Assembly: GCA_037444305.1 (NCBI GenBank)
Contig: JBBIMP010000014.1
Coordinates: forward strand, 47,316 to 111,315
DNA length: 64,000 nucleotides
Direction: 5' to 3'
DNA from: Acidobacteriota bacterium
GTDB taxonomy: Bacteria; Acidobacteriota; UBA6911
This document shows positions 4,814 to 55,433 of this stretch, piece after piece. Position 1 is the stretch's first letter. Each line of letters begins with the position of its first letter. A program made the position numbers and the translations under genes. Below the pieces are notes generated by a model. The model did no database searches, was not told the origin of the DNA, and saw only the letters and a list, made by a program, of their open reading frames with translations.

Positions 4814-5770
4814 TCAAATCCTCTCCAAGGCCCTCAGGCGGGCGCTCCTCGACCGGGGATTCGAGGCGATTTCCGCGGCGCTTGGGGTTCGGGATCGCGA
4901 AAATACCGGCCGCGCGAGCGCCCGCCTGGGGCAGGTGCAGAGCGCGGGCGCTCTATTGCAGACGCACCGTCCGCTGAGCATCCGGAACGCGGACTTGACG
5001 ATCCGGTCCTCGAGCGAATGAAAGGCGATCGCAACGATTCTGCCGCCGGGCTTGAGGAACCGGAGCACCCCGGCGAAGAAGTCCTCCAGCCCTTCGAGTT
5101 CCTGGTTGACGGCGATGCGCAAGGCCTGGAACGTCTGCGTGGCCGGATGGATGCCGTGCGTGCGGCGCCGGCCGGCCGCCCGCGCGACGATTTCGGCAAG
5201 CTGGGCGCACCGGGTGATGGGTCCGTGGGCGCGGGCCGCGACGATGGCGGCTGCGATCCGGCGGGAGCGCTTTTCTTCGCCATAGCGGTAGATGATCCCG
5301 GCGAGCTGCTCCTGGCTGAGGTTGTTCACGAGGTCGGCCGCGGTGGGGCGCTGACCGCGATCCATGCGCATGTCGAGCATAGCCGTCGAACTGAAGCTGA
5401 AACCCCGATTTTCGCTGAGCAGCTGATAGCTGGAGATGCCGAGGTCGACGAGAATCCCATCCACCGGCCTCAGGTCCAGATTGTTCAGGACCAGCGGGAG
5501 GTTTTTGAAGTTCTCGTGGAACAGCCGTGTCGCTCCCTCATGTTCCCTGAGCCGGCGGCGGGCTATTTCCAGGGAGTCCCTATCCCGGTCGATCCCGATC
5601 AGCATCCCCACCGGTCCGATCCTCTCGAGGATGGCCAGGGCGTGTCCGCCCAGCCCCAGGGTCGCGTCGACGTAAACCCCGCCCGGTTCGCATCCCAGGG
5701 CGCCGATCACCTCCTCCACCATGACGGGCACGTGATCGGGTTCGCAGCTGTCGGTGAAGCTGTCTTTCAT
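4814..5770 (-). CDS. rsmH: 16S rRNA (cytosine1402-N4)-methyltransferase RsmH/MraW
   Basis: Motifs HVPVMVEEV, DATLGLGGHA and VDLGISSYQL are present. I prefer the start at ATG 5768-5770 (MKDSFTD...), which removes the overlap with mraZ. The ORF track has an upstream alternative start at 5842. Confidence 0.9.
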   Translation of the reverse strand: MKDSFTDSCEPDHVPVMVEEVIGALGCEPGGVYVDATLGLGGHALAILERIGPVGMLIGIDRDRDSLEIARRRLREHEGATRLFHENFKNLPLVLNNLDLRPVDGILVDLGISSYQLLSENRGFSFSSTAMLDMRMDRGQRPTAADLVNNLSQEQLAGIIYRYGEEKRSRRIAAAIVAARAHGPITRCAQLAEIVARAAGRRRTHGIHPATQTFQALRIAVNQELEGLEDFFAGVLRFLKPGGRIVAIAFHSLEDRIVKSAFRMLSGRCVCNRAPALCTCPRRALARPVFSRSRTPSAAEIASNPRSRSARLRALERI

Positions 5771-5822
5771 CGTGGTATGCAGGGACGTTCGCACTATCCC
5801 TCCCTCGCAGACAACGCGCATT

Positions 5823-6263
5823 TCAGAACCCCTGCTCGGCAAGCCTCTCGCGGTCCAGGTCCGTTAGAGGCGCGTCGATGAGAGCTTTTCGGATGGCCTC
5901 CGTGTTCCAGATCTCCAGGTGGTCGGTTTTTCCGATCACGGTCACTTCGCCCGTGAGGCCGGCATCGTCGCGCAGGAACTGCGGGATCAGGATCCGGCCC
6001 TGGGGGTCCATCTGCGTCAGCAGCCCGTAGTAGCTCGTGAACTTCTGGTATTTCAGCTTGGCGGGATCCATGCGTGGGGGCTGCTGCAGCTTCTCGGCGA
6101 TCTGCTCCCAGATGGGCAGGGGGTAGATCTGTGCGCAGCGCCCATCGTCGCTGGTCACAAAGTAGACGTTGTCGACGGTTTCGGGGAGGTCGCGGCGGAA
6201 CTTGGCCGGGACCTTCAACCGGAACTTATTGTCGATCTTTGCCGGAAAGCTGCCCCATAGCAT
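5823..6263 (-). CDS. mraZ: Transcriptional regulator MraZ
   Basis: 146 aa from ATG 6261-6263: MLWGSFPAKIDNKFRLKVPAKFR ... DPQGRILIPQFLR, i.e. the duplicated DxxxR SpoVT/AbrB-like halves. It is the first gene of the dcw cluster. Confidence 0.92.
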   Translation of the reverse strand: MLWGSFPAKIDNKFRLKVPAKFRRDLPETVDNVYFVTSDDGRCAQIYPLPIWEQIAEKLQQPPRMDPAKLKYQKFTSYYGLLTQMDPQGRILIPQFLRDDAGLTGEVTVIGKTDHLEIWNTEAIRKALIDAPLTDLDRERLAEQGF

Positions 6264-6341
6264 ACGTCGCGCACCGCATAACGACTCAATTCTCGGAAAG
6301 ACCCAGTTTAAGGGGGAAAGGCATCCAAAGTATCCCGCTCT

Positions 6342-6374
6342 GACCACTTTGGACCACTTTGGACCACGGCCCAC
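6342..6374 (-). promoter_or_regulatory. Putative MraZ operator: three perfectly 10-bp-phased GTGGTC(CAAA) direct repeats plus a fourth GTGGG
   Basis: The plus strand reads GACCACTTTG GACCACTTTG GACCAC GGCCCAC. The minus strand therefore reads GTGGGCC GTGGTCCAAA GTGGTCCAAA GTGGTC. It lies 79-111 bp upstream of the mraZ ATG and immediately downstream of the predicted -10. Confidence 0.6.
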
Positions 6375-6403
6375 ACAATATGGCGCTTCTCGACTTCTGT
6401 CAA
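6375..6403 (-). promoter_or_regulatory. Sigma70-like promoter of the mraZ/dcw operon (Pmra)
   Basis: On the minus strand: TTGACA (6398-6403), a 17-nt spacer, then TATTGT (6375-6380). It directly abuts the repeat operator. Confidence 0.55.
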
Positions 6404-6680
6404 GAAGTTCTTGGGAAATTTTGCGCTTCTGGGGCCTCGACCGCGATTTTGACCGGCCGCCTATGTGCCCGAGTCGCGGAAGAGGGGAAAATGCGCGGGA
6501 TTCGGCTGAGGGCCAGCTTTCCTCGACCGCTGATTCCCGGCTCCGGCAGGGAGCAACCCCTGGTCGTGCTAAGATGTTTTTCAGCCGAAAAGCTGCCGTG
6601 CCCGCCGTGTTTCCCCGCGGCGAAGCGGCGAACACGGACGGGGACATCATGGTCATGCCGGCAAGCCGGGAGGGATTCGC

Positions 6681-7790
6681 ATGAAGATCGGGATCGTCGG
6701 CTTACCTCATTCCGGGAAGACCACGCTCTTCAACCTGCTCACGCACGGCCATGCGGAAACCTCGGCGTGGGGCGGCCGGATTGAAGCGCACCTGGGGGTG
6801 GCGAAGGTTCCGGATCCGCGGCTGGAGAGGCTGGCGGAAATCGTGAAACCGGAGAAGACCACCCACGCCACCATTGAATACGTCGACCTGCCGGGCATGG
6901 CACGCGGCGAGGCCAGGGCGGCGGCCGAAGCGGGCGGGACGGATCGCGGGCTGCACCTGCACAACCTGAAGAATGTCGATGCTCTCGTCCACGTGGTGCG
7001 CGCCTTCGAGGAGGCAAACATCCCGCACTCCGAGGGCTCCGTGGATCCCCGGCGCGACGTCGAGCTGTTCGAACTCGAGATGATGCTCTCCGACCTTGCC
7101 ATCGTGGAGAAGCGGCTGGAGCGGCTCTCCCGCGACCTGGCGAAATGCCGGAGCGCGGAACTGGAGGCGGAAAACCGATGGCTGCTGAAATGCAGGGAGG
7201 CCCTCGAGCAGGAACGGCCGCTTCGGGAACTGGATTTGACGGAAGACGAGGAAAAGGGGATACGGGGATTCACCTTCCTTTCGGCCAAGCCGCTCCTGAT
7301 AGTGCTCAATCTGGGGGATGGCGATGCGCGGAAAATCCCCGATGCGGCCCGCGAATTCGGGCTCGACGAGTTCGAATCGAAAGCCGGGGTCGGGGTTGCG
7401 GCGGTCTGTGGCCGGATCGAGGCGGAGATCGACGCGCTCGATGCCGAAGACGCCGGCATGTTCATGGACGACCTGGGGCTGACCGAAAGCGGCCTGACGC
7501 GCATCGTCGAGAGGTCTTACGCCCTCCTGGGGCTGGTATCGTTCTACACAATTGTGGGCCCGGAGGTTCGCGTTTGGCCGGTGCCGGCAGACACCCCGGC
7601 GGAAACCGCTGCCGGCGTAATCCACACGGATATCCAGAGGGGCTTCATCAAGGCCGAGGTCGTCTCCTTCGAGGAAATGGTGGAACTGGGATCCTTTGCC
7701 GCGGCCCGGAACAAGGGAGTGCTGCGGTTGGAAGGGAAGGAATACCCGGTCCGTGATGGGGATGTGATTCTCTTCCGGTTCAACGTCTGA
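6681..7790 (+). CDS. ychF: Ribosome-binding ATPase YchF
   Basis: 369 aa: MKIGIVGLPHSGKTTLFN (G1), and a C-terminal TGS-like VIHTDIQRGFIKAEV. Confidence 0.95.
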   Translation: MKIGIVGLPHSGKTTLFNLLTHGHAETSAWGGRIEAHLGVAKVPDPRLERLAEIVKPEKTTHATIEYVDLPGMARGEARAAAEAGGTDRGLHLHNLKNVDALVHVVRAFEEANIPHSEGSVDPRRDVELFELEMMLSDLAIVEKRLERLSRDLAKCRSAELEAENRWLLKCREALEQERPLRELDLTEDEEKGIRGFTFLSAKPLLIVLNLGDGDARKIPDAAREFGLDEFESKAGVGVAAVCGRIEAEIDALDAEDAGMFMDDLGLTESGLTRIVERSYALLGLVSFYTIVGPEVRVWPVPADTPAETAAGVIHTDIQRGFIKAEVVSFEEMVELGSFAAARNKGVLRLEGKEYPVRDGDVILFRFNV

Positions 7791-7991: not shown

Positions 7992-10745
7992 ATGCCGATG
8001 CCGAGACTTTCCATCCTTGCGGTGGTCACGCAGTTCTTCCTGGCTGCTGCGATGCCCCTCGCGGCACAGCAGCGCTCGGGCGAGGAGTTTTTCGGCCGGG
8101 TCGTCTCCGGCATCGATTACGTGGCCGATCGGCCGCTCGTGCGCGCCCATTTCGACCCGATGCTGGGGTGTGGTCCCGGCGAGGTCCTGACACGGACGGG
8201 CCTGAAGGCCGCGATTCAGGCCCTGTATGACACGGGTCAATTCTCGAGCATCTCGGCTTTCGGCGAGCCGGACGGCGACAAGGTCCGCCTGACGTTTCAT
8301 CTCCTGCTCAACTACTACTTCAACCGGTTTTTGATCGAAGGCGAGGTAGACCTTGGTGGTCGCCTCCCGGCCGAGGTGATGGACCTCCCCGTTGGGGCCA
8401 GGTTCACTCCCGAAAGGCTCGAGGAGAGCCGCCAGATCATGGGCCGGTATATGCGGGACCGCGGGTACTTCCAGGCTCGGGTCGAGACGAGCGTTGTGCG
8501 GGATGCGGAAAACCGGCAGGCGAACGTTACCTTCGTCATAGAGCAGGGAGAGCTGCCGACGATCCGCTCCGTAATTCTCACGGGGGTAGCCCCGGAGCAG
8601 GAGCCCGCTATCCTCGATAAATTCGGTTTCCTTCAGGGGAAGAAGTACGAGCGCTTCCGGCTGAGGCAGCGGGTGGAGAATCTCGATCAGTATCTGCTCA
8701 GACGGGGCTGGCTGGCCGCGGAAACCCAGCTCTCGGAGATCTTCGATCCCGACGACAACACGATCGCCCTGGAACTTCGAGTGCTGAATGTCGGGGAGGT
8801 CCGCGTGATGGTGGAGGGTTTCGGCATACCGAGAGACAGGTTGAGCCGTCTGCTGCCGGTCCTTTCGGGAGAGGGCCTTCAGCCCTGGCTTCTCGAGGAA
8901 GGTGCGCAGAATCTGCGGGAATACCTGGAAGAACAGGGCTATCCGGAGGCCGACGTGCGGGCAGAGCAGGAGGTGGACCGCACGGGCGCACGCACGCTGA
9001 AGTACGTGGTAGAGGCCGGCCGCAAGGTGACCGTAGGCGATGTCGAGTTCGCCGGCAACCGGGCATTCTCCGACGATGAGCTGCTTGCCTCGGTGCAGGT
9101 GCAGCCTGCCCGTTTTCTTCAGAAATCGGTGTACAGCATTTCGAAGCTGGATTCCGATGTCGAGAACCTCCGGCTCCTCTATCACTCCTCCGGCTACCTG
9201 GAGGCGCAGGTCATCCCCCTGGTGCAGGCGATGGGCGATTCGAGCAGCCTGAAGATCACATTCGAAGTGGACGAAGGAGACCTCTCGCGGGTGGCCGCTG
9301 TCGAGCTGCGCGGCTGCGCCCAGGTCTCCGAGGACCGGCTCAGGTCGAGGCTGGCCATGAGGCCCGGCAGCGCCTACTCGCCTCAGATCGCGGAACGGGA
9401 CAGACAGGCCCTGCTGGCAGCTTACAACGATGCAGGTTTCCTGCAGCCTCAGGTGGTGTACTCCGCGACCGAAACCGGCGGCGGCCGGTATGTGCTGCTG
9501 TTCGACATCGAGGAGGGCCCGCGCTCCTACGTGGACCGGGTCCTCATCCTGGGAAACGACCGGACTCGGAGATCCTTCATCGAGAAGAGAATCAGCCTCG
9601 GCGAAGGCGAGCCCCTCAGCCTGGGAGGAATGCTGGAAACACAGCGAGCGCTTTACGCCACCGGGGTGTTCGACCTGGTGCGCGTGTCGCCGCAGACTCC
9701 GGAAAGCCTGGCGCGGCATCAGAGCGTGGTGGTGCGCCTGACCGAATCGAAGCGGTACACGATCCGCTACGGGCTCGGATATCAGGAACGGGAGAGGGTG
9801 AGAGGCATCCTCGAACTGAGCGACGGAAACATCCTGGGGACGGGGCGCCGGGCCGACCTGCGCCTCAGGGGAAGCACCATCGAACAGGGCGCCATCCTGA
9901 GCTTCGAGCAGCCGCGAATCCGCTTCCTGCCGGTAAACTCCTACCTCACGCTGTCCGGCAGGCGCAAGCGGGAGGTCAGCTTCGATGTTCGGCGGCTCAA
10001 CTTCACCTATCAGTTCAGCCGGCCGGTGGGCACCCACGCGTGGGCGCTCCTGCGCTACAGTTTCCGCAACGTCCGGGTGTCGGACCTTAGGGTCTCCCCC
10101 GGCGAGCTCGGGCGCGAGGACATTCCGAGGAATCTTTCCACCTTTTCGGCGATATTCATCAACGACACCCGCGACAACTATCTGGATCCGGACCGCGGAT
10201 TCTTCACCTCGGCCGACCTCAGCCTCACGACGAAACTGATCGGCAGCAACAACTATGTCTCGCTGTTCACACAGAACAGCTATCACTGGAACTGGACGCG
10301 GTCGCTGCTCATGGCCGCAGGCCTGAGGTTCGGGGTGGCCCAGCCTTTCGGCGGCGACAGGGATCTGCCGATCAGCGAGCGGTTTTTCGGCGGCGGCGCC
10401 TCGAGCCTCCGCGGATTCGACACCGACCGGGCCGGGCCCCTGGATTCGAAAACGAACCAACCGGTGGGCGGCAATGCGATCCTGGTCGGCAACCTGGAGG
10501 CGCGCATCCCCCTGCTTAGCAGCCTCCGGCTGGCGATGTTCTACGACGCAGGAAACGTGTTCCGCTCCCTGGGGGCCATTCGCCTCCCGGACGTCAGTCA
10601 CACGGTCGGTCTTGGGCTGAGAGTGAAAACGCCGCTGGGTCCGCTCAGGATCGACTATGCAATCAACCTGAACCTCTCCGAACGGTTGCGGACGCTGGGA
10701 TACGACCGGCGGCAGTTCTTCATCACGATCGGGCCGCCGTTCTAG
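7992..10745 (+). CDS. bamA: Outer membrane protein assembly factor BamA (Omp85, POTRA repeats plus beta-barrel)
   Basis: About 917 aa. It has a signal-like N-terminus (MPMPRLSILAVVTQFFLAAAMPLAAQQ), repeated POTRA-like modules, a C-terminal barrel with GGNAILVGNLEARIP, and a terminal ...TIGPPF. The ORF track offers a TTG start at 7971. Confidence 0.9.
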   Translation: MPMPRLSILAVVTQFFLAAAMPLAAQQRSGEEFFGRVVSGIDYVADRPLVRAHFDPMLGCGPGEVLTRTGLKAAIQALYDTGQFSSISAFGEPDGDKVRLTFHLLLNYYFNRFLIEGEVDLGGRLPAEVMDLPVGARFTPERLEESRQIMGRYMRDRGYFQARVETSVVRDAENRQANVTFVIEQGELPTIRSVILTGVAPEQEPAILDKFGFLQGKKYERFRLRQRVENLDQYLLRRGWLAAETQLSEIFDPDDNTIALELRVLNVGEVRVMVEGFGIPRDRLSRLLPVLSGEGLQPWLLEEGAQNLREYLEEQGYPEADVRAEQEVDRTGARTLKYVVEAGRKVTVGDVEFAGNRAFSDDELLASVQVQPARFLQKSVYSISKLDSDVENLRLLYHSSGYLEAQVIPLVQAMGDSSSLKITFEVDEGDLSRVAAVELRGCAQVSEDRLRSRLAMRPGSAYSPQIAERDRQALLAAYNDAGFLQPQVVYSATETGGGRYVLLFDIEEGPRSYVDRVLILGNDRTRRSFIEKRISLGEGEPLSLGGMLETQRALYATGVFDLVRVSPQTPESLARHQSVVVRLTESKRYTIRYGLGYQERERVRGILELSDGNILGTGRRADLRLRGSTIEQGAILSFEQPRIRFLPVNSYLTLSGRRKREVSFDVRRLNFTYQFSRPVGTHAWALLRYSFRNVRVSDLRVSPGELGREDIPRNLSTFSAIFINDTRDNYLDPDRGFFTSADLSLTTKLIGSNNYVSLFTQNSYHWNWTRSLLMAAGLRFGVAQPFGGDRDLPISERFFGGGASSLRGFDTDRAGPLDSKTNQPVGGNAILVGNLEARIPLLSSLRLAMFYDAGNVFRSLGAIRLPDVSHTVGLGLRVKTPLGPLRIDYAINLNLSERLRTLGYDRRQFFITIGPPF

Positions 10746-11571: not shown

Positions 11572-14500
11572 AGAGAAAGCTCTGGAAGGCTCTCCTCGTT
11601 GCCGGCCTGCTCCTCGGCGGGCTGGCAGCGGCCGGTGGTTTGTATGTGAGCAGCCGAGGTTTCCAGGAAAAGCTGCGGCTGTATGTCGTCGACAAAGTGC
11701 AGGAGGCGACCGGGCAGGTCTGCAGTATCGGTTCTTTCCACTTCGATCCCTTCCGGCTCTCCTTCCAGGTGGCGGGCCTGCAGCTCACTCCCGCGGCCGG
11801 CGAGCAGAACCGCTTCGGCCTGGCGGTGGAGCGTATCGAGGGGCGCCTGACGCTGAAGGCGCTCCTCCTGCCCCATGTGGAACTGGCGGAACTGGCGGTG
11901 ACGGGGCCGAGAATCTCCTTCAGGACCGGCGATTCCGAAGACGGCTGGAAGGCGGAGTCGTTTCTGCGGGTGCTGCGGCGCTCTTTCGACTTCGCCTCCG
12001 GCAGGGCGGAGGTCCGGGGAGGTTGGGTGGAATGGAATCAGGTCCGGATTCCGCTGGAGTTTTCGTTGGAAGACCTGGCGTGCGCCATCCGCTACCGGGA
12101 AGAACCTCTGGCCTACGGCATCGACCTATCCTACCGGAACGGCCGGGTGGCCTGGGGGGACAGGGAGATCCCTTACGACCTGCAGGCGCGGCTGGATCTC
12201 TCGATAGAGGGGATCGAGATCGAGTCCTTCCACGTCCGCCGCGGAATGAGTCATTTCCTGGGCACCGGCAGCATGAAGGACTGGCGGTCGCCCGCGCTGG
12301 TCGTCCAGGCCCGTGGCAAGATGACCGAGGAATCGCTCCCCCTTTTCCACTCCTCGCTCAGCGAGGCTCGCGGAGACCTCGAGGTGGCGGGAACCCTGCG
12401 ATGGGACCGGGCAGGTTTTTGGTCCGCGGGCCGGTTCTCGACCCCGGCCGCCGGATACCGGAAGGTGGGTATCGCCGCTCTCAGAGGCGACTATCAGATC
12501 AAGGATGACACCATTTTCCTGGCCGGGGTGGAAGGCCGGATCGGCGAGGGGCGAATTACATGCGAAGGGCACATGCACCTGAAGCGGGATCCCCTCACTC
12601 CGCATGACCTGACCTTCACCACCCGTGCGGTCCGGATCAGGGACCTGACGGCGATCATCAACCTCGACGGCTTCGACCTGGCCAACGCGGTGAACGCAGC
12701 CGCGCGAGTTTCCTGGCGGACCGGTGCGTCCGACCTGAAGGTCGAGGCGGACGCCGACCTGCTGCCGCCGGTGGCACAGGCGGCTGCGGCGGGGCGCTGG
12801 ACGCCCCTCGCGGGAACCCTGGGCTTCGGCTACCGGCAGGGAGCGTGGCATCTGCCGAAGGCGGATCTGCGCTCGGCGGACACCGTTTTTCATGCGGAGG
12901 GACGGGGGTGGGGCCGCTCCCGGATCCGTCTCCGCACGAAAGATCCTTCCGAGGTGCTCGAAATCGTTGGGGATTTTTCCCGGACACTGAAGGATCTCGC
13001 GGTTGAGAGACCGGAGAGGTTCGATCTTGCGGGAGAATTCGGCCTGGAGGGCGAGCTCCGGCTCGATGCCCCGGAGGGCGTCTCGTACGAAGGGCACATC
13101 GAATCGAACCAGGGAAGGTGGAGCACGTTCAAGACGGACCGCCTCGCCGCCGGCATCTTCTGGGATGGAAGCAGGCTCAGGCTGCGGGCCGCAACGGTGC
13201 GCGCGGACGCGCTCGCGATCGCAGGAGATTTGGAGCTCGAGGTGCCGCCGCCCGGGGAGTCGCTGAAGGACTGGAAGTTTTCCGGCAGCGTCGCCAACCT
13301 GTCCCTTGCCTGGCTCCGCGATGCGGGTGTAACTGCCGTCGGCGATGCCACGGGTTTGATCGAAGCGGAGGGCGTGGCAGGCCAGGAGGATGGAAAGTGG
13401 CTGGGGGACACGCGCTTTCAGATCGTGCAGGGAGTCTACCGGGACCTGGCGTTCGACCTGGCCCGCGGCAGAGCCCGGGTGCAGCAGGGCAGGCTGAATA
13501 TCATGGGCGGGAGGATATCGAGCGGGTCCGCCCAGCTGGAAGTCGATGGATTCCTCGAGCTGGACACCGGCGGGCTGGAGCTGAGCGCCCGGGCGACGTC
13601 CTTCCCGCTGGCGGATATCCCCGCGATCCAGCGCAACGAAATGCCGATACGGGGGCAGGCGACGGCCTCGGGGACCGTGGCGGGTACGCTGGACAATCCC
13701 CGCGCGGAGGGGAGCTTCGAACTCAAAAACCTGCAGTACTCCGACTGGAATCTCGGAAGCGGCAAAGGGACTTTCGAATTCGGCGGCCGCAGCCTGGCGG
13801 CTAAAGCCGCGGTGGCTTCCGAGCTGGGCAGGCTGCAGGGCAGGGTCCAGGTTTCGACCGGGGAGGACTACAGCGGGAGCGCGGTGGTCGAATTCGGCGA
13901 CTGGAATATCCAGAAGATGCTGGAGGGGAAGGTGCCCGAGTATTTCAGCGAGGTTAGCACAGCTCTCCAGGGACGGGTTGAAATCCGCGGGAATTTCGAC
14001 CAACCGGCAAAACTCGGGGCCCGGGGCGAGATGGACGGCGCCCGCTTCAGGATCGGCGGAGTCGAACTCCAGAACCGGGGGAAAATCGGATTTTCCGTGG
14101 CCAACCGGAGGCTTTATGTGAGCCAGGCCCAGTTGTCGGGCGAGGCGACGGATCTCGCCCTGGACGGCATCATCCCGCTGGACGACGGCCCCGGGCTCGA
14201 ACTCGCCCTCAAGGGGCAGCTCAATCTCAGGATTCTCGATCATCTGGCAACCAAGGTCGGAATTGTCGGCTCGGCGGACCTGGACGTGCGCGCTTCCGGA
14301 TCCCTGGGCGATCCGCAGGTGATCGGGCAGGCGTCGTTCCGCGATGTCCGTCTGGGTTTCGGCGATTTTCCCTATCCCCTCACCGCGCTGCAGGGGAAGG
14401 TGATATTTTCACGCAACTCGGTCGGCCTGGAAAACGTCCGGGGGAACTTCGCTTCGGGTTCGGTCACGGTGACGGGTTCGCTGGAACACCAGAATGCCGA

Positions 14501-15476
14501 GCTCCGGGCCTTGAACCTGCAGGCGGAGGTGAAGCGGGCCCGCCTGCTCTATCCCAGGGATTTCCGTTCCACGGTGGACGGACGGTTGAATCTACGGGGG
14601 AGCGGCGATGCCCAGCTTCTGACGGGTGAGGTGAAGGTGGTGCGGGCCGAGTATCAAAGGGACTTCAACCTGCTCGAACAGCTGGCGGCGAGGAGCGCGG
14701 CACCGGCCGGTCCGGGCGTCACAGATCCGTTCCTCGCGGGCATCCGGCTCAACGTCTCGATTCACTCCGAGGACGGGCTTTCCATCGACAACGAACTGAC
14801 GAAGCTGCGCGGGCGGATCAATCTCACGCTGCGGGGGACCGTCGCCTACCCGTCGCTCACCGGCCGCGTGGAGGTGACCGAGGGATTCATTTTCTTCCGA
14901 GGAAACCGCTTCGAGATTATCCGTGGAGCCGCGGATTTCGTGGACCGAAACCGGATCAACCCGACTTTCGACCTGAGGGCGGAAGCCGATGTCAAGACCT
15001 ACCGGCTGATGCTGGATGCCACGGGGGATCTCGGCAACCTGCGGTTCAACATGGCCTCGGATCCACCCCTTTCAACCGTCGACATCGTGGCACTGATGAC
15101 CACGGGGATCTCCGGCAGAGGCGACAGCACTCAGGCTCGGGCGCAGTCGGAAATCACCGGCCTCAGTGCGGCCAGCATCCTCTCGGAAAGCCTGTCGGGG
15201 GTGCTGGGCAAGAGGGTTCAGCGCATTTTCGGACTGGAAAGCTTCCGCGTCGATCCCTTCCTCGCGGGCGCCGAAAACGACCCGACGGCGAGGGTCACCA
15301 TCACCGAGCGGCTGTCCAAGGATCTTGCGGTCACGTTTTCCCGGAATCTCTCCACCAACGAGGAACAGATCGTGGTGGTGGAGTACGATGTGACCCGCAA
15401 CCTGTCCATCGTGGCCACGCGGGATGAGGAGGGAGCCTTCGGGATCGACTTCCGCTTCCGGAAGCGCTTTCGCTGA
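11568..15476 (+). CDS. tamB: Translocation and assembly module protein TamB (DUF490 C-terminus)
   Basis: About 1302 aa from MKRKLWKALLVAGLLLGGLAAAG (N-terminal anchor), with a long beta-rich body. The C-terminus FRVDPFLAG...VTFSRNLSTNEEQIVVVEYDVTRNLSIVATRDEEGAFGIDFRFRKRF is typical of TamB/DUF490. Confidence 0.85.
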   Translation: MKRKLWKALLVAGLLLGGLAAAGGLYVSSRGFQEKLRLYVVDKVQEATGQVCSIGSFHFDPFRLSFQVAGLQLTPAAGEQNRFGLAVERIEGRLTLKALLLPHVELAELAVTGPRISFRTGDSEDGWKAESFLRVLRRSFDFASGRAEVRGGWVEWNQVRIPLEFSLEDLACAIRYREEPLAYGIDLSYRNGRVAWGDREIPYDLQARLDLSIEGIEIESFHVRRGMSHFLGTGSMKDWRSPALVVQARGKMTEESLPLFHSSLSEARGDLEVAGTLRWDRAGFWSAGRFSTPAAGYRKVGIAALRGDYQIKDDTIFLAGVEGRIGEGRITCEGHMHLKRDPLTPHDLTFTTRAVRIRDLTAIINLDGFDLANAVNAAARVSWRTGASDLKVEADADLLPPVAQAAAAGRWTPLAGTLGFGYRQGAWHLPKADLRSADTVFHAEGRGWGRSRIRLRTKDPSEVLEIVGDFSRTLKDLAVERPERFDLAGEFGLEGELRLDAPEGVSYEGHIESNQGRWSTFKTDRLAAGIFWDGSRLRLRAATVRADALAIAGDLELEVPPPGESLKDWKFSGSVANLSLAWLRDAGVTAVGDATGLIEAEGVAGQEDGKWLGDTRFQIVQGVYRDLAFDLARGRARVQQGRLNIMGGRISSGSAQLEVDGFLELDTGGLELSARATSFPLADIPAIQRNEMPIRGQATASGTVAGTLDNPRAEGSFELKNLQYSDWNLGSGKGTFEFGGRSLAAKAAVASELGRLQGRVQVSTGEDYSGSAVVEFGDWNIQKMLEGKVPEYFSEVSTALQGRVEIRGNFDQPAKLGARGEMDGARFRIGGVELQNRGKIGFSVANRRLYVSQAQLSGEATDLALDGIIPLDDGPGLELALKGQLNLRILDHLATKVGIVGSADLDVRASGSLGDPQVIGQASFRDVRLGFGDFPYPLTALQGKVIFSRNSVGLENVRGNFASGSVTVTGSLEHQNAELRALNLQAEVKRARLLYPRDFRSTVDGRLNLRGSGDAQLLTGEVKVVRAEYQRDFNLLEQLAARSAAPAGPGVTDPFLAGIRLNVSIHSEDGLSIDNELTKLRGRINLTLRGTVAYPSLTGRVEVTEGFIFFRGNRFEIIRGAADFVDRNRINPTFDLRAEADVKTYRLMLDATGDLGNLRFNMASDPPLSTVDIVALMTTGISGRGDSTQARAQSEITGLSAASILSESLSGVLGKRVQRIFGLESFRVDPFLAGAENDPTARVTITERLSKDLAVTFSRNLSTNEEQIVVVEYDVTRNLSIVATRDEEGAFGIDFRFRKRFR

Positions 15477-35606: not shown

Positions 35607-35680
35607 TGGGAGATCGTCTAATGGTAAGACGGGTGGCTCTGGACCATCTGATCGGGGTTCGAATCCCTGTCTCCCAGCCA
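35607..35680 (+). tRNA. tRNA-Gln (anticodon CUG), CCA encoded
   Basis: Hand-folded cloverleaf:
- acceptor TGGGAGA/TCTCCCA
- D arm GTCT-AATGGTA-AGAC
- anticodon arm GGTGG-CTCTGGA-CCATC (CUG)
- variable loop TGAT
- T arm CGGGG-TTCGAAT-CCCTG
- discriminator G, then CCA
The U1:A72 pair and G73 match tRNA-Gln identity elements. Confidence 0.9.
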
Positions 35681-45431: not shown

Positions 45432-45890
45432 ATGAAGCCGCGGATCTATCCCGACACGTCGGTTCTGGGCGGTTCGGCGGACGACGAGTTCCGCGAGCCG
45501 TCACGGCGCTTGCTTGACGCATTCCAGCGTGGCGAGCTGACCCTGGTGTTGTCGGAGCTGACGATACGCGAGCTCGAGGCGGCTCCGCAGGCGGTGAAAG
45601 GCGTGCTGGGGCGGATACCGACCGCCTGCATCGAGACCTTGGCGGTGTCACCTGAGGCGGAGGATCTGGCGGCCGCCTACATTGTGGATGGCGCCATCGG
45701 GGCGCAGATGCGGGCGGATGCGTTGCACATCGCGCTCGCCACCGTGGCTCGGGTTGATGTCCTCGTGAGTTGGAACTTCAGGCACAGCGTGAATCTGAAA
45801 CGAATCCACGCGTACAACGCGGTCAACCTCAAGAAAGGCTGCCCGCTGCTTGAGATCCGAAGTCCCTGGGAGGTTACAGGCGATGAGTGA
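45432..45890 (+). CDS. PIN-domain protein (VapC-like toxin)
   Basis: 152 aa. The putative acidic residues are MKPRIYPDTSVLGG (Asp8), SELTIRELE and ADALHIALATVARVDVLVSWNFRH. Confidence 0.8.
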   Translation: MKPRIYPDTSVLGGSADDEFREPSRRLLDAFQRGELTLVLSELTIRELEAAPQAVKGVLGRIPTACIETLAVSPEAEDLAAAYIVDGAIGAQMRADALHIALATVARVDVLVSWNFRHSVNLKRIHAYNAVNLKKGCPLLEIRSPWEVTGDE

Positions 45891-46089
45891 GAGATCCTCA
45901 AAGACATTCGACTGTGTTCGAAGCATGCGCGAGGTTCGGGACAAGATCAGTGCCGAAATCGAGGGTAAGAGCTACGACGAGTTGGCCAAGTGGCTTCGAG
46001 CTCATCGGTACAAGGACCCGATCCTACGGCGGTTGGCGGAGAGGGCTGCCCAACAAGCCGCTCCAGCGGGCGGCCGGAAGTCCCCGTGA
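45883..46089 (+). CDS. Small protein overlapping the PIN gene's stop (candidate cognate antitoxin)
   Basis: 68 aa: MSERSSKTFDCVRSMREVRDKISAEIEGKSYDELAKWLRAHRY... The ATG lies within ATGAGTGA, which overlaps the PIN stop by 8 nt. Confidence 0.5.
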   Translation: MSERSSKTFDCVRSMREVRDKISAEIEGKSYDELAKWLRAHRYKDPILRRLAERAAQQAAPAGGRKSP

Positions 46090-47429: not shown

Positions 47430-48054
47430 GAATGTTGGTGTGGCATCAACTTCACCTCAGAAGCGGCAAGTTTCTCGCCTGTCACCGGCAGGCGTTTGAC
47501 GCCGGGAAGCTGAAGTTCCATGGAAGACCGGCGCGCTTTCGGACGGCCTCTTCGTACCGCCGGCGAGGCCGATTGGGTCGTCTACTGCAAGCCACCCCTG
47601 GGCGGCCCTGCTCCGGTGCTCGATTACCTGGGCCGCTATACGCATCGAGTCGCCATATCCAAAAACCGTCTTGTCCGGCTTGAAAACGGCAAGGTCACCT
47701 TCCGCTGGAAGGATTATGGCCAGGGCAGCCGCTTTCAGTTGATGACCCTCGGCGCAGACGAGTTTATTCGCCGCGTTCTCCTTCACGTCCTGCCCCCGGG
47801 GCATCATGCGCCTGCGGCACTATGGCCTCCTGAGCAACCGCGTCGAAAAGCTCGCCCTGTGCTGCAAACTGATTGCCCAGACCGAGCCCGCTGATCGCCG
47901 GCGCCAGCCATCTGCCGACTGGAAGGCGCGCTACGAAGCGCTGACCGGCGTCTCTTTGGATACCTGCCCGGCGTGTCGCCTCGGCCGCATGGTATGCGTC
48001 GAGACCCTTGCCGCGCGGGAAGATCGATCCCGCTGTAGAAATGGTGTTGCCTAG
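47430..48054 (+). mobile_element. IS91-family (Y2/HUH rolling-circle) transposase relic: C-terminal part only, at least two frameshifts and an internal deletion
   Basis: Three successive frames carry the fragments. The first reads LVWHQLHL-RSGKFLACHRQAFDAGKLKFHG. The second reads WVVYCKPPLGGPAPVLDYLGRYTHRVAISKNRLVRLENGKVTFRWKDYGQGSRFQLMTLGADEFIRRVLLHVLPPG. The third reads MRLRHYGLLSNR...CPACRLGRM. The N-terminal half is absent. Confidence 0.75.
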
Positions 48055-48230: not shown

Positions 48231-50459
<2,229 letters not shown>

Positions 50460-50849
50460 CGCTTACAAGGCACGCTGACGTCAAGAGGGACCATTCTTTT
50501 TACCGCCCTCGCTGGTACGCGCCTTCGTTATTGGATTTTGACACTCTGACTTGATTTCCGTCTTCGGGTGCAGCACCAGGACGCCCTGCACCCAACATTT
50601 GTCGAGGCTCCGGCGCTGGGATCATCCCGGCGCTGCGGCCCGAAATCCGTCTGCACCCTTGGGCAGTCCACATCAAAACAATGGTCGTATTGGCGCCATC
50701 TTCCCCAGGCCCGGTTGGGGGCCGGGCAGGAATACTTCGCTCAATCCGCCGGCCAACCGTTAGATTGGTAGCGGGGATCATTCCAACCGCCTCTTTCGGG
50801 CGCAGCCTGCGCCACTGGCGATCTCATCTTTTTTTGCCCGCGGTGTTTC

Positions 50850-52202
50850 ATGCAGCTTCTCTTCGATCGCGGCACGCTTCTGATCCGAGGGAACCCGGCA
50901 GAGGCAGGGCGCCTCCCCGGAGTTCTCTGGGATCCGCGCATCGGCGCCTGGCGAGCTCCGGCATACCGCCATGTCGAGCTGGCCAAAGAACTCGCACGGC
51001 GATATGCCGATTTTCACGACGAAGCCCGCCTGCAACTCCCCGCTCCGCCATCGATCGGGTGTCCCGGCCTCCGCCCGTATCAAGCCGCTGCGGTAGCTGC
51101 ATGGGAGCTTGCGGGCCGAAGAGGCATCATCGCACTCCCGACGGGCGCCGGCAAAACGCGCACGGCCATTGCCGCCATCGCCCGAACCGGTCTGCGGGCG
51201 CTATGTCTCGTCCCGACGCGGGTGCTCCTGGCGCAATGGGTCAAAATGCTCGGCGAAGCCGGCCTCGGGCCGATCGGCGAATATGGCGACGGGCGCCGCT
51301 TCGAGCATCCCGTGACCGTGGCTACCTTTGCGAGTGCCTGGCGCAATGTGGAGACTCTGGGCAACCGGTTCGACTTGCTCGTCGTCGACGAAGTCCACCA
51401 CTTCGGCTTGGGCGCCGGAGACGAGGCGCTCGAGATGTGCACGGCCGCTGCGCGGCTGGGCCTCAGTGCGACGCTGCCGGATGATCCGATCCGACGAGCC
51501 CGTCTCGACGCGCTGGTCGGCCCTGAAGTCTACCGGGCAAGCGTGGAGGAACTGGCCGGGCGCTATCTCGCTGCGTTCCAACTGGTCACGATCACGGTCG
51601 GGCTCACCCCTGAAGAACGTAGGGCTTACGATGCCGAAGTGTCGGTATTCCGTCCCTTGTGCCGCGCGTTTTTCGATTCGGCGCCGGGGGCCTCCTGGTC
51701 CGACTTCGCGTCGGCGGCCGGCAAGAGCGACGAGGGACGGCGGGCGCTCGCCGCCTGGCGGCGCTCCCGGAGCATTGTCCGTTACGGCACGGCGAAGCGC
51801 GGCGTCGTCCATGATCTGCTGCTGCGGCATCGCACTCATCGCATTCTCGTCTTTGCGGCAGACAACGACACGGCCTACGCCGTGGCTCGAGAGCATCTCG
51901 TCCAACCCATCACCTGCGATATCGGGCCCAAGGAGCGGGCGCGGGCGCTTCAACGCTTTTTCGACGGCGAACTGCGCATTCTGGTAAGCGCCCGCGTCCT
52001 GAACGAAGGCATCGACGTGCCGGCCGCCGACATTGCCATCGTGGTCGGCGGCAGCCAGGGCTCGCGGGAGTACATCCAACGGGTAGGGCGAGTGCTCAGG
52101 CCCTCCGAAGGAAAGGAAGCGGTCGTCTACGATCTCGTCACCCGCGGCACCTTCGAGGTGCGGCTCGCCCACCGGCACAGGAGGGCGCTTGCTTCCGGCT
52201 GA
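50850..52202 (+). CDS. XPB/Rad25(ERCC3)-like SF2 DNA helicase
   Basis: 450 aa. The N-terminus MQLLFDRGTLLIRG...WDPRIGAWRAPAYRH is like the XPB damage-recognition domain. Helicase motifs are I ALPTGAGKT, II VVDEVHH, III LSAT, V VLNEGIDVP and VI QRVGRVLR. Confidence 0.85.
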   Translation: MQLLFDRGTLLIRGNPAEAGRLPGVLWDPRIGAWRAPAYRHVELAKELARRYADFHDEARLQLPAPPSIGCPGLRPYQAAAVAAWELAGRRGIIALPTGAGKTRTAIAAIARTGLRALCLVPTRVLLAQWVKMLGEAGLGPIGEYGDGRRFEHPVTVATFASAWRNVETLGNRFDLLVVDEVHHFGLGAGDEALEMCTAAARLGLSATLPDDPIRRARLDALVGPEVYRASVEELAGRYLAAFQLVTITVGLTPEERRAYDAEVSVFRPLCRAFFDSAPGASWSDFASAAGKSDEGRRALAAWRRSRSIVRYGTAKRGVVHDLLLRHRTHRILVFAADNDTAYAVAREHLVQPITCDIGPKERARALQRFFDGELRILVSARVLNEGIDVPAADIAIVVGGSQGSREYIQRVGRVLRPSEGKEAVVYDLVTRGTFEVRLAHRHRRALASG

Positions 52203-53358
52203 TCGGCTCCAGGTTCGGATCGCGGGACGGGAGGCGGTGCCCGTGTGGCTGGGCCCGGAGGACCATGCCTGGCTGCGAGCCTTGATCGACGATTTTGCCA
52301 GGCTGGACGGCCGCCCATACCGCGAGGTCATTTCGTTCCTGCAGGAACCGTCGCGCACAGCTTCGCCTGCCGGCAAGCGGCGGATGGCAATCTGGATGCT
52401 CCAGCATCTCTGCACGCGCGACCGTCCGCCGCTCGATGCTGCGGCGCTGCGGGACGCGGTCGCCGTCGCGGCACAGCGGGCCCGCGATGCGGATCGGTTC
52501 GATCGATCGGAGGTGCTGGACGCTGGCTCCCGGTCCCTCGGGCTGTCTGCTGCCGCGGCCGATGAGCACCTGTTCGCAGATCTTCCGGGGGAGCGGCGAC
52601 TGCGCACTCCCACACCCCTCCCTGATCCGCAGGCGCTGGCGACACGCACCAATCTAGCGCTGGCGCAAGGTCTGCTCAGGCTCGCATTCGAGGTTTCCAT
52701 CGAGCTTTACGGCGGCGCCCGCGCCGTGGTTCGGCAGGTGCGCCTGCGGCGCCTCGTCTGTACCGTTCGCCGCAAGATGACGGACGGCGTTCGCTTCGAA
52801 ATATCGGGCCCGTTTTCGCTGTTTCGGCGCACGACGATGTACGGCCGCGCCCTGGCGTCAATCCTTCCGCTCCTCCCCTGGTGTGACCGTTTCGAGCTTG
52901 TGGCACGCTGCCTCTTGCGCGGCCACGCCGTGAGCGTGCACTTGCGTCCGGGTGATCCTATCGCTGCCGGCGAGCCGCCGCGGCCATACGACAGCCGGCT
53001 GGAAGAGCGCTTCGCACGCGACTTTGCGCGCGCGAACCTGGATTGGGACCTCATCCGCGAGCCCGAGCCTGTCCAAGCCGGCGAAGCCCTGGTGTTCCCG
53101 GACTTTGCCGTCGTTCACCGGCGCGATCCCTCGAAGCGTTGCCTGCTCGAGATCGTCGGTTTTTGGACGCCTGAATACCTGCGCGAGAAGCTCGATCGTG
53201 TGCGCGCCATGCCCCGCGAGCCGATGGTGCTCTGCATCGATCGCAGCCTGAACTGCAGCGCCGGTGAGCTGCCTGCGCACGCGCGCATCGTATGGTTCCG
53301 CAGGCGGATCGAGCCCGGCGCGGCGATGGCGGCAATCGAGGCGGCGGTAAAGAAGTGA
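52189..53358 (+). CDS. DUF790-family (Bax1-like) predicted PD-(D/E)xK endonuclease
   Basis: 389 aa. The TTG start overlaps the helicase's 3' end by 14 nt. Central ISGPFSLFRRTTMYGRALASILPLL. C-terminal YDSRLEERFARDF...LVFPDFAVV...CLLEIVGFWTPEYLREKL matches my recollection of the DUF790 pattern fDS.lE...PDF...EIvGFWtpeYL. Confidence 0.75.
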   Translation: MLPADRLQVRIAGREAVPVWLGPEDHAWLRALIDDFARLDGRPYREVISFLQEPSRTASPAGKRRMAIWMLQHLCTRDRPPLDAAALRDAVAVAAQRARDADRFDRSEVLDAGSRSLGLSAAAADEHLFADLPGERRLRTPTPLPDPQALATRTNLALAQGLLRLAFEVSIELYGGARAVVRQVRLRRLVCTVRRKMTDGVRFEISGPFSLFRRTTMYGRALASILPLLPWCDRFELVARCLLRGHAVSVHLRPGDPIAAGEPPRPYDSRLEERFARDFARANLDWDLIREPEPVQAGEALVFPDFAVVHRRDPSKRCLLEIVGFWTPEYLREKLDRVRAMPREPMVLCIDRSLNCSAGELPAHARIVWFRRRIEPGAAMAAIEAAVKK

Positions 53359-53450
53359 TGAGTTCAGCGCCCGCGACGAACCGGAGCGCGAGGCGCGGTT
53401 GGAGAGCAGAGTATCGGGATGCTGCCGGCGAGACCACAAGGCCCTTGGGT

Positions 53451-53470
53451 GCCGGCATGCCGGCTTTTCT
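53451..53470 (+). terminator. Rho-independent terminator after the helicase-DUF790 operon
   Basis: The palindrome GCCGGCATGCCGGC (5-bp stem, GCAT-type loop) is followed by TTTTCTC, 93 nt after the DUF790 stop. Confidence 0.6.
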
Positions 53471-53531: not shown

Positions 53532-53768
53532 ATGCGCTTTGCGAGCGTTGCAGAGGTTAAAAACCAGCTCTCCCGACTCCTGGCGGAGGCAAAAAAAACG
53601 AGGGAGCCCATCGTCGTGACTCATCACGGTAAACCATACGCGCTGATCCAGGCTATTTCGGAAAGGGACCTGGAAGAGCTGGGGTGTTCGAGCCAGCCGC
53701 GGGAGAGAAGGTGTCCGCCATCGGCGGAGGCCCCGCCGGGCTGTCCGCGGCGCACGACCTCGTCCTGA
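53532..53768 (+). CDS. Phd/YefM-type antitoxin N-terminal domain with a non-homologous C-terminal tail (orphan, probably chimeric)
   Basis: MRFASVAEVKNQLSRLLAEAKKTREPIVVTHHGKPYALIQAISERDLEEL is a classic Phd/YefM N-domain. From about 53680 the frame continues as an out-of-frame read of the oxidoreductase fragment. No toxin gene follows. Confidence 0.55.
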   Translation: MRFASVAEVKNQLSRLLAEAKKTREPIVVTHHGKPYALIQAISERDLEELGCSSQPRERRCPPSAEAPPGCPRRTTSS

Positions 53769-54388
53769 TGGGATTCCGGCCGGTGGTGTACGAGGCGGAA
53801 GCGGTCTGGAGCGGGATGCTGGCCCTCGGTGTGCCCGAATACCGGCTGCCGCGCGAGTCGATCCGGCGCGAAATCGCCGTTATCCAGGCGCTCGGCGCCG
53901 AGTTGCGCCTTGAAGTGTGCGTCGGCTCGGACCTGTCGTTTGCCGAAATCCGGCGGGAATCCGCCGCGGTGATCCTGGCCGCCGGCGCGAAGCGCTCGCG
54001 GCAGCTGGGACTGCCGGGCAAGTCCGGCCCCGGCGTCCTCGGGGGCGTGGACCTGCTCCGCGCCGTATCGCTCGGTGAAACCTTGGAGCTGGGCGAGGAC
54101 GTGATCGTCGTTGGCGGCGGCAATGTGGCCTACGACGTCGCCCGCACGGTGGTCCGGCAGGCGGCCTATGACGCCGCCCGGACCGCGGCGCGGCTTCCGG
54201 GGACGCGGCGCGTGCGCCTGGTTTTGCTGGAGACGCTGGAGGAGATGCCGGCCGACACCGTCGAAATCCGTGAAGGCGACGAAAAAGGCGTCGAGCGGGT
54301 GAACGGCTGGGGTCCGGTGGAGATCCACCGGGATCCGCAAGGCATATCCCTTCGAGGCGCAATCGCTCGAACCGGGTTCTGCGCATAA
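53684..54388 (+). pseudogene. Truncated GltD-like NAD(P)H/FAD-dependent oxidoreductase (central part only)
   Basis: It starts directly at the dinucleotide-binding motif EKVSAIGGGPAGLSAAHDL and has a second Rossmann motif VIVVGGGNVAYDVAR, then LLETLEEMPADTVEIREGDEKGVE. The usual N-terminal Fe-S region and the C-terminal third are missing. Confidence 0.55.
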
Positions 54389-55264: not shown

Positions 55265-55410
55265 ATCCACATTTCGAGGCCGACTTCGGAGAAGCCGGGA
55301 GCACGCGATAAGGTTCGTTCGAAAACTGGGGAACGCATTTGTCGAAGGCCCTGGTATCGCTTGGATGAATGGAAGGATACGCGATGGACCCTGAAAGGGT
55401 CCGACAGGAG

Positions 55411-55433
55411 AGCCCAGGGCGTCAGCCCTGGGT
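55411..55433. repeat. GC-rich palindromic hairpin repeat, copy 1
   Basis: AGCCCAGGGC-GTCA-GCCCTGGGT (8-bp stem). A separate perfect hairpin, GGACCCT-GAA-AGGGTCC, lies at 55386-55402. Confidence 0.6.

Follow-up and report, generated by a model that had tools for sequence, protein, structure and literature searches.

An XPB-Bax1-like helicase-nuclease gene pair in an Acidobacteriota genome and its relatives across bacterial phyla

The superfamily 2 (SF2) helicase XPB and the DUF790-family nuclease Bax1 are best described from archaea, where reference structures are available from A. fulgidus (6P66), S. tokodaii (6P4F, 6P4O, and 6P4W), and P. furiosus (Bax1, 8GY8), and a review from 2026 continues to describe XPB-Bax1 as archaeal. 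Among bacterial XPBs, only those of Mycobacterium tuberculosis (Rv0861c) and Kineococcus radiotolerans have been characterized biochemically, and no bacterial XPB-Bax1 complex was known in 2012 (PMC3353954). The association of COG3372/DUF790 proteins with SF2 helicases in prokaryotes was published in 2005, in a paper that already gave the same "repair or selfish" alternative considered below, and was tabulated again in 2012 (PMC3424549). RefSeq labels the members of such pairs "DUF790 family protein" and "DEAD/DEAH box helicase family protein." Here we describe one such pair in a metagenome-assembled genome (MAG) of a soil Acidobacteriota bacterium (GTDB lineage Bacteria; Acidobacteriota; UBA6911; GenBank assembly GCA_037444305.1, contig JBBIMP010000014.1, positions 47,316 to 111,315). 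We refer to this 64,000-nucleotide (nt) stretch as the window and give all positions in its own coordinates. An original prediction, made from the sequence of the window, had proposed the pair as a candidate anti-phage or anti-plasmid module or, equally, a laterally acquired repair module, and as an under-described system. In view of the 2005 and 2012 publications the latter description was overstated: gene pairs of this kind had already been catalogued, and the locus is an expected further example rather than a new system.

The first gene of the pair (50850..52202, + strand) begins with an ATG and encodes a 450-amino-acid (aa) protein, which was assigned from its open reading frame (ORF), its Pfam matches, and its alignment to chains in the PDB. 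The Pfam matches comprised XPB_DRD at aa 3-59 (PF18458, 53.6 bits vs. a cut-off of 26), ResIII/DEAD, Helicase_C, and ERCC3_RAD25_C. A. fulgidus XPB (AfXPB) aligned with the protein from end to end (E = 4e-84), through DRD, HD1, the thumb (ThM) region, and HD2, and without a major gap in the thumb region of the sequence alignment; S. tokodaii XPB2 aligned with E = 2e-76. The SF2 motifs are complete: motif I (PTGAGKT, 51138-51158, +), Ia (LVPTRVLLAQW), II (DEVHH, 51387-51401, +), III (SAT, 51465-51473, +), V (VLNEGIDVP), and VI (QRVGRVLR, 52077-52100, +) are all present and are kept across 64 family members. The predicted XPB-style N-terminal domain and motifs I, II, III, V, and VI were thus found as described. 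With its short DRD, its alignment through the ThM region, and its Bax1 partner, the sequence places this helicase in the archaeal XPB type.

The second gene (52189..53358, + strand) overlaps the first by 14 nt and encodes a 389-aa protein from a TTG codon. Direct reading of the sequence identified a Shine-Dalgarno sequence, AGGAGGG (52179-52185, +), inside the 3' end of the XPB gene and 3 nt 5' of the TTG. Because the predicted N-terminus, MLPADR, lines up with the ATG-initiated MLPADR of relatives and with MLPKEL of A. fulgidus Bax1 (AfBax1), and because AGGAGGG lies just upstream, this unusual start is well supported, in agreement with the original prediction. The protein matched the DUF790 profile (PF05626) over nearly the entire model (252.7 bits vs. 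a cut-off of 28.8, E = 6.9e-75; protein residues 1-380, profile positions 1-384 of 387), as well as the Bax1 chains of XPB-Bax1 complexes in the PDB (StBax1, 6e-25; AfBax1, 5e-21). The nuclease active site of AfBax1 consists of E275, D305, and E318 (PMC7293015). When the window protein was aligned to AfBax1, the counterparts were E273 (53005-53007, +), D305 (53101-53103, +), and E321 (53149-53151, +), which are held within the motifs YDSRLEERF, FPDF, and LLEIVGFWTPEYLREKL. D305 and E321 are invariant and E273 is nearly invariant in 65 relatives; in SsBax1, D301 is one of the conserved acidic active-site residues of the nuclease domain. Profile searches of both proteins, proposed in the original prediction as a check, bore out the assignment of both genes.

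The structural model pointed in the same direction. An AlphaFold2 model of the window Bax1 (pLDDT 87.4, pTM 0.80) contained the helical N-terminal domain, the Cas2-like domain, and the nuclease domain of the known fold, and when the model was compared with the PDB by Foldseek, all eight matches with E ≤ 1e-3 were Bax1 chains (probability 1.00, TM 0.56-0.60, ~400 columns). The interface of AfBax1 to XPB, also proposed as an N-terminal active site, has been mapped to six residues, F119, Y131, D133, E135, Y155, and N156 (PMC7293015). In the window protein, F129, D131, and N155 align to like AfBax1 interface residues and are invariant or nearly so among relatives, while P133 and T154 are the counterparts of E135 and Y155 of AfBax1, with an invariant glutamate, E135, two positions further on; the corresponding stretch, FADLPGERR, is encoded at 52573-52599 (+). 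Like the archaeal pair, the locus combines the same two families in the same gene order with overlapping genes and a comparable Bax1 N-terminus, and we are highly confident of its biochemical identity as an XPB-Bax1-type pair. It differs from the archaeal pair in its bacterial host and in a leader motif specific to the cassette. Compared with other bacterial pairs of a DUF790 (COG3372) protein and a COG1061 helicase, no substantive difference was apparent.

Two other helicase groups deserved comparison. The actinobacterial XPBs of M. tuberculosis and K. radiotolerans share with the window protein an SF2 core of the XPB/ERCC3 lineage, and 3'->5' polarity would be expected of both. The M. tuberculosis-type proteins, however, carry a eukaryote-like domain of 120-130 aa at the N-terminus in place of a DRD, and they have a strictly conserved RED motif, no ThM, and no known Bax1 partner (PMC3353954); the window protein has a short archaeal DRD, lacks RED, and aligns through the ThM region, and so does not belong to that type. 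The best matches of the helicase core outside the XPB family were PbeA and TIGR04095 (dnd_restrict_1), helicases of phosphorothioate-linked restriction. PbeA was the best match in PADLOC (E = 2e-51), followed by weaker generic helicase models, and TIGR04095 was the second-best match in NCBIfam (E = 1.3e-36). In both cases only the core was matched: the PbeA alignment covered profile positions 253-633 of 672 and left positions 1-252 unmatched, and the TIGR04095 score was 126.6 bits vs. a cut-off of 600. No other Pbe or Dnd gene was present among the Pfam labels of neighboring genes, and the partner in the window is Bax1, which is foreign to those systems. Since the best outside matches are phosphorothioate-linked restriction helicases, XPB-like motors are reused in at least one defense context.

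To place the pair among its relatives, we scanned one genome per species and obtained 79 loci, distributed among Acidobacteriota, Myxococcota/"delta proteobacteria," Methylomirabilota/Rokubacteria, Planctomycetota, Actinomycetes, and others, with the closest relatives in Acidobacteriota/Terriglobia MAGs. The pairs listed in published PD-(D/E)xK surveys come mainly from Archaea, Cyanobacteria, and Deinococci, with one actinobacterium; the window extends this range to Acidobacteriota, and its relatives extend it to Myxococcota, Methylomirabilota, and Planctomycetota. The XPB gene was directly upstream of the Bax1 gene in 72 of the 79 loci, separated by -10 to +200 nt and usually overlapping by a few nt. 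Of the remaining seven, three (L046, L076, and L077) had almost no sequence upstream of the Bax1 match, one (L022) lacked XPB, one (L024) was decayed, and two (L030 and L045) were fragmented or second-copy matches. The pairing is thus obligate. Both genes are under purifying selection, with dN/dS values of 0.125-0.145 for XPB and 0.127-0.18 for Bax1 against seven relatives, and from the sequence data the two-gene unit is real and apparently functional.

The limits of the unit could be read from its closest relatives, with which nucleotide homology (84-85% identity) extended exactly over 50725-53347. The 5' part of this block is a conserved leader (50725..50849, +), defined by blastn alignments to loci L003 and L004 that begin at 50725. 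Within it lies the element GCTCAA-N15-TTAGAT (50739..50765, +), which is invariant in 16 Acidobacteriota leaders and is found ~85 nt 5' of the XPB start codon in the Acidobacteriota copies (L003-L020). It does not match the sigma-70 consensus, and from its position and conservation it is probably the cassette's own promoter or operator; it might serve as a promoter particular to the lineage or as a binding site for a regulator. In the Acidobacteriota loci that we fetched, the element was located just 5' of XPB; L013 has one more copy, ~750 nt farther upstream, and the decayed locus L024 has a second. No further copy was present in the 64-kb window, and we rejected the idea that the motif is a signal for a wider regulon. 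The self-contained two-gene operon of the original prediction was supported. The ends of the cassette bear no meaningful repeats, whether direct or inverted, and no tRNA gene adjoins them (the sole tRNA gene, for tRNA-Gln, is at 35607), and we found no copy of the pair in phage genomes or in IMG/VR contigs; a defined mobile-element vehicle was rejected on these grounds.

Outside this block, no flanking genes were shared. Of the 14 genes around the pair in the window, not one was found beside the pair in any other locus, even where the proteins of the pair were 85-89% identical, and clustering of ~1,100 neighboring ORFs from the 79 loci, called with a crude GC3 heuristic that misses some small genes, revealed no recurrent neighbor family. 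A conserved third gene was rejected, since the larger clusters consisted partly of antisense or miscalled ORFs of the pair itself and otherwise of generic families present in nine loci at most (NtrC-type regulators, ABC ATPases, DUF433, Fic, and RND). Antisense ORFs like the 499-aa one opposite the XPB and Bax1 genes of the window (51201-52700, -), a high-GC artefact, made spurious "conserved neighbor" clusters in relatives. Only one multi-gene arrangement around the pair recurred among the Pfam-labelled loci, in a single acidobacterial lineage (L088:11624-13645 and L090:11707-13993), where the pair is followed by a ComM/YifB-like ATPase of the Mg-chelatase family and then by a Phd(-PIN) module.

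Multiple and damaged copies were also encountered. A MAG contig from Anaeromyxobacter (L045) carries two complete XPB-Bax1 pairs 8 kb apart (4856-6978 and 13056-15129), and in two further cases the two copies of one MAG are on different contigs (L023/L068 and L075/L078). L024, from an Acidobacteriota MAG, contains two deletion derivatives of the cassette (9800-10640 and 14100-14650), each preceded by a leader motif of its own. In one of them, XPB aa 1 to ~38 is joined out of frame to Bax1 aa ~177-386, and in the other the leader is joined to Bax1 aa ~244-386; the reading frame of the nuclease domain is open in both.

The family is of modest size, with 2,190 clusters at 50% identity among a total of 1.84 billion. 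DUF790 homologues are carried on 42 plasmids, 12 of them from Deinococcus and the rest haloarchaeal, often among insertion sequence (IS) elements, and a helicase gene preceded DUF790 in each of the three plasmid loci inspected. An H. volcanii pair is carried on pHV4 (HVO_RS03805/03800). On plasmid pDEIPR04 of D. proteolyticus, the pair (DEIPR_RS13565/13560) lies ~2 kb from parA/parB and ~4 kb from a replication-initiator gene. On plasmid P1 of D. gobiensis (L082, 6105-10289), a gene of the spore-photoproduct-lyase family is directly upstream of the helicase-DUF790 pair (DGO_RS15715/15720). The stop codon of DUF790 is overlapped by a hypothetical ORF of 142 aa, and the locus may therefore be a four-gene operon.

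The Bax1 gene of the window has lost its 3' end. Homology with relatives stops at a breakpoint (53347..53348, no strand assigned) located 11 nt before the Bax1 stop codon; the window protein reads ...IEAA up to this point and then VKK and the stop codon, while the frame of the relatives goes on with ...THVERLGLGDLF... into an additional C-terminal domain of ~125 aa (HVERLGLGDLFIDWAGR...WTVPIVEV; compare L004:11132-11542). In the seven closest loci with downstream sequence (73-85% identity), Bax1 is 500-560 aa long and includes this domain; an eighth, L008, ends at a contig edge. The domain is carried by L003-L007, L009, L010, L028, L031, L034, and L041 and is missing from many other family members, and it had no Pfam match. 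A tblastn search found no remnant of it anywhere in the window. Because homology stops at 53347 and the relatives' domain has left no remnant, we conclude that the 3' end was lost by rearrangement, which is consistent with the decayed surroundings. The loss need not have inactivated the nuclease, since natural short forms of ~390 aa with the same end point are common in the DUF790 family. The Phd protein of the window is unrelated to those of L088 and L090, and we therefore rejected the idea that the junction arose by one deletion from their Bax1 - ComM-like - Phd arrangement. The long-form domain showed no similarity to the small ORF that follows DUF790 in D. gobiensis.

An intrinsic terminator at 53451-53470 had been predicted to belong to the operon. 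A consensus scan of this region returned a weak terminator-like hairpin (53451..53470, +) with a 5-bp GC stem at 53451-53464 (GCCGGCATGCCGGC) followed by TTTTCT. The number of such sites was not above that in shuffled sequence (2 found, 2.3 expected), and the hairpin was no more stable than shuffled sequence (fold z = 0.38). Since it lies beyond 53347, where homology with relatives ends, the hairpin is not part of the ancestral cassette, and the prediction of a dedicated terminator was not upheld.

If the pair works as its archaeal homologues do, the coupled genes would yield a heterodimer in which the N-terminal domain of Bax1 sits on the HD2/thumb region of XPB. XPB would engage duplex DNA that is distorted or has partly come unpaired, gripping it between its RecA domains, and ATP-driven 3'->5' translocation would wedge the strands apart, while the N-terminal and Cas2-like domains of Bax1 would hold the other strand or arm. 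The PD-(D/E)xK-type site formed by E273, D305, and E321 would then nick near the junction of single- and double-stranded DNA. Such an activity would most likely serve accessory, non-essential repair or structure processing (bulky lesions, crosslinks, or persistent bubbles), supplementing the core systems of the host. Homology to the solved archaeal structures (PMC7293015, PMC7672443) is the basis on which we infer that the two proteins form a complex, have these activities, and act in repair.

We then asked whether the surroundings of the pair mark it as a defense system, as the original prediction had suggested from its setting among mobile-element debris. Seven loci of relatives had precomputed Pfam labels, and their contexts were ordinary. 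One locus contained genes for ribosomal proteins, EF-Ts, RRF, and EF-P, and another contained sulfatase genes. Elsewhere the pair was accompanied by genes for a radical-SAM protein, a Crp-type regulator, an isochorismatase, amidohydrolases, and MFS transporters, with a BrnA antitoxin gene nearby; by a cytochrome-c maturation (Ccm) operon and a tRNA synthetase gene; by TonB-dependent receptors; or by an M48 peptidase, an MFS transporter, and a ComM-like ATPase. Genes of a conflict type were limited in these seven contexts to scattered small toxin-antitoxin modules and one IS200. Neither the window nor the seven annotated relatives contained restriction-modification, CRISPR, or other known defense genes within 10 kb, and we found no partner gene for self/non-self discrimination, such as a methyltransferase, and no sensor gene beside the pair. 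Bax1 had no match in PADLOC-DB v2.0.0 and no family in PHROG. The original prediction had also proposed a test for enrichment near defense genes. PADLOC models numbered 96 among the 134 proteins encoded close to the pair (≤4 kb) and 76 among 134 encoded further away (6-10 kb). This comparison is crude and weak either way, as it rests on per-model counts with one of three near batches scanned, and the matches are mostly generic (SNF2, kinase, Fic, and AAA models occur in both sets) and lack a genome-wide background. It revealed no clear difference, and we regard enrichment in defense islands as not shown rather than as excluded. The commonest Pfam family among near neighbors, PIN, accounted for 4 of the 134. 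Nothing that we found marks the pair as an anti-phage system, and the debris around the window copy did not prove to be a signature of one.

A laterally acquired repair module fits these data better than a defense module, and an accessory, structure-specific DNA repair module is the most likely reading of the pair. We lean toward repair because the contexts are ordinary rather than defense islands and because no partner such as a methyltransferase accompanies the pair. The spore-photoproduct-lyase-family gene directly before the pair on the D. gobiensis plasmid is a further pointer to repair. We put accessory repair as the physiological role at about even odds, and consider the joint account, in which the locus is a horizontally acquired two-gene cassette of the XPB-Bax1 type that is used in repair, to be slightly favored. 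Several observations weigh against it. The RED motif, which in StXPB is needed for full DNA binding and ATPase activity (PMC7672443), is replaced by PDD in the window (51477-51485, +); it is R-E-D in A. fulgidus, M. tuberculosis, and human XPB and R-D-D in S. tokodaii XPB, while the consensus of the bacterial clade is variable ("pPedp") and the arginine is unconserved. Neither protein reached the NCBIfam equivalog cut-offs (XPB against NF045503, DNA repair helicase XPB, 152.6 vs. 610 bits; Bax1 against NF053695 and NF053694, archaeal endonuclease Bax1, 124.6 and 106.5 vs. 500 bits), and Bax1 identity to the archaeal proteins is 20-23%; the two proteins, with scores far below the cut-offs, are clear homologues of the archaeal ones and not near-orthologues. 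The window Bax1 lacks any C-terminal domain, including the one carried by its closest relatives. Deletions of xpb and bax1 in S. islandicus gave no phenotype (PMC4471258), and the phenotype of an xpb/bax1 deletion in T. kodakarensis was only marginal (PMC7690668), so that a repair role is unproven even in the archaeal reference systems. The literature that we searched contained no experiment on any bacterial member of the pair and no publication on the function of the bacterial archaeal-type pair or on XPB/Bax1 in phage defense, in keeping with the original prediction that no physiological role had been assigned. Upstream of the Deinococcus plasmid copies, a search for the RDRM (the DdrO operator) returned no match in L082 and two one-mismatch matches in L083; nothing was above chance. 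Finally, the patchy distribution, the plasmid carriage, the multi-copy genomes, and the decayed copies are equally compatible with an accessory element that is selfish or defensive.

Immunity against phages or plasmids, in which the helicase-nuclease pair would recognize and cut invading DNA such as replication or recombination intermediates of mobile elements, much as other pairs of a helicase and a PD-(D/E)xK nuclease act in defense, would account for the two-gene architecture with its own promoter-like leader, for a genomic position that varies fully even between close relatives, and for carriage on Deinococcus and haloarchaeal plasmids amid IS elements. Two-copy genomes and decayed copies, the helicase core's resemblance to PbeA and the Dnd-associated helicase, and archaeal deletions that lack a repair phenotype can be read in the same way. 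That resemblance is confined to the core that PbeA shares, however, and the absence of Bax1 from PADLOC and PHROG, of the pair from phage genomes and IMG/VR, of known defense genes from the annotated contexts, and of a modification or sensor partner all speak against immunity, as do the similar and mostly generic PADLOC counts near and far. Toxin-antitoxin genes of the PIN, DUF433, Fic, and Phd types, which count among the most frequent neighbors, are a point in favor of immunity. Such genes abound in these soil phyla, and their presence in at most 6 of the 79 loci is for that reason weak evidence. We regard an immunity function as unlikely, and only a little more probable than a broader version in which the XPB-Bax1 cassette is a mobile, self-promoted module circulating among soil bacteria, Deinococcus, and haloarchaeal plasmids that acts on foreign or selfish DNA, or is itself selfish, and is not a housekeeping repair system; that version would explain both the nomadic positions and the missing repair phenotype of the archaeal deletions.

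A different role in genome maintenance is also conceivable, if improbable to much the same degree as immunity or marginally less so: the pair might act at stalled forks, R-loops, or persistent transcription bubbles, or in recombination or plasmid maintenance, rather than in repair of the excision type. Bacteria generally possess UvrABC, and archaeal mutants are not UV-sensitive. Archaeal XPB-Bax1 acts preferentially on forks and bubbles, cutting at junctions (PMC7293015, PMC7672443), and the pair precedes a ComM-like ATPase gene in the two syntenic loci and lies near the partitioning and replication genes of pDEIPR04. The ComM adjacency is limited to one lineage, though, no neighbor for replication, recombination, or transcription is conserved, and sequence data do not tell this role from the repair role. 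The remaining alternative, that the window copy is a decaying, non-functional relic of a past transfer, draws on the loss of the Bax1 3' end at a breakpoint, on neighbors that include an IS91 relic, an orphan antitoxin gene, and a gene fragment, and on the outright deletion derivatives of L024 in a related genome. We consider it very improbable, given that neither ORF is interrupted and every catalytic and ATPase motif is present, that dN/dS is 0.13-0.18 for both genes, that the promoter-like leader and the Shine-Dalgarno sequence are preserved, and that many family members are naturally short and stop at the position where the window protein does. Because dN/dS averages over both lineages, it could miss a very recent inactivation.

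The flanks of the window copy were as the original prediction had described them, and Pfam searches confirmed a decayed neighborhood. Upstream lie a fragment of an IS91-family Y2_Tnp transposase gene (47520..47891, +; PF04986, E = 8.6e-29, profile positions 76-168 of 183) and katG, encoding a catalase-peroxidase (48264..50459, +), a context gene that is unlinked to the pair in any relative. Downstream are an orphan gene for a 78-aa Phd/YefM-type antitoxin (53532..53768, +), in which only aa 4-43 match the family and which is not followed by a toxin gene, and a half-length Pyr_redox_2 gene fragment (53684-54388) that overlaps the antitoxin ORF. The C-terminal half of the Phd/YefM-like protein, rich in proline and arginine, is encoded where its ORF overlaps the start of the Pyr_redox_2 ORF, which suggests a junction made by rearrangement. 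Further away, a 152-aa protein (45432-45890, +) had only sub-threshold PIN matches (PIN_3, 22.8 vs. 27 bits), and its ORF overlaps by ~40 nt a small downstream ORF at 45850-46089 (+); the two may represent a degenerate or unusual toxin-antitoxin pair. At 55387-55432 (-), the Rfam Acido-Lenti-1 small RNA motif was matched over the full model length but below threshold (31 bits vs. a gathering score of 37, E = 7e-4), which fits an acidobacterial origin.

The clade to which the window pair belongs is marked by the lack of a RED motif, by an optional C-terminal domain, and by a conserved leader. XPB-Bax1 is the best structural model of how XPB couples DNA opening to incision in excision repair of the eukaryotic type, and even in archaea, where deletion has little or no effect on phenotype, its role in the cell is not settled. 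Our data show the archaeal-type pair to be a compact cassette, subject to purifying selection and scattered over several bacterial phyla at unrelated positions. Its presence on plasmids of culturable Deinococcus and Haloferax makes tests of repair, of fork or bubble processing, and of conflict with mobile DNA tractable. For annotation, the results support renaming pairs of a "DEAD/DEAH box helicase" and a "DUF790 family protein" as XPB-Bax1-like.

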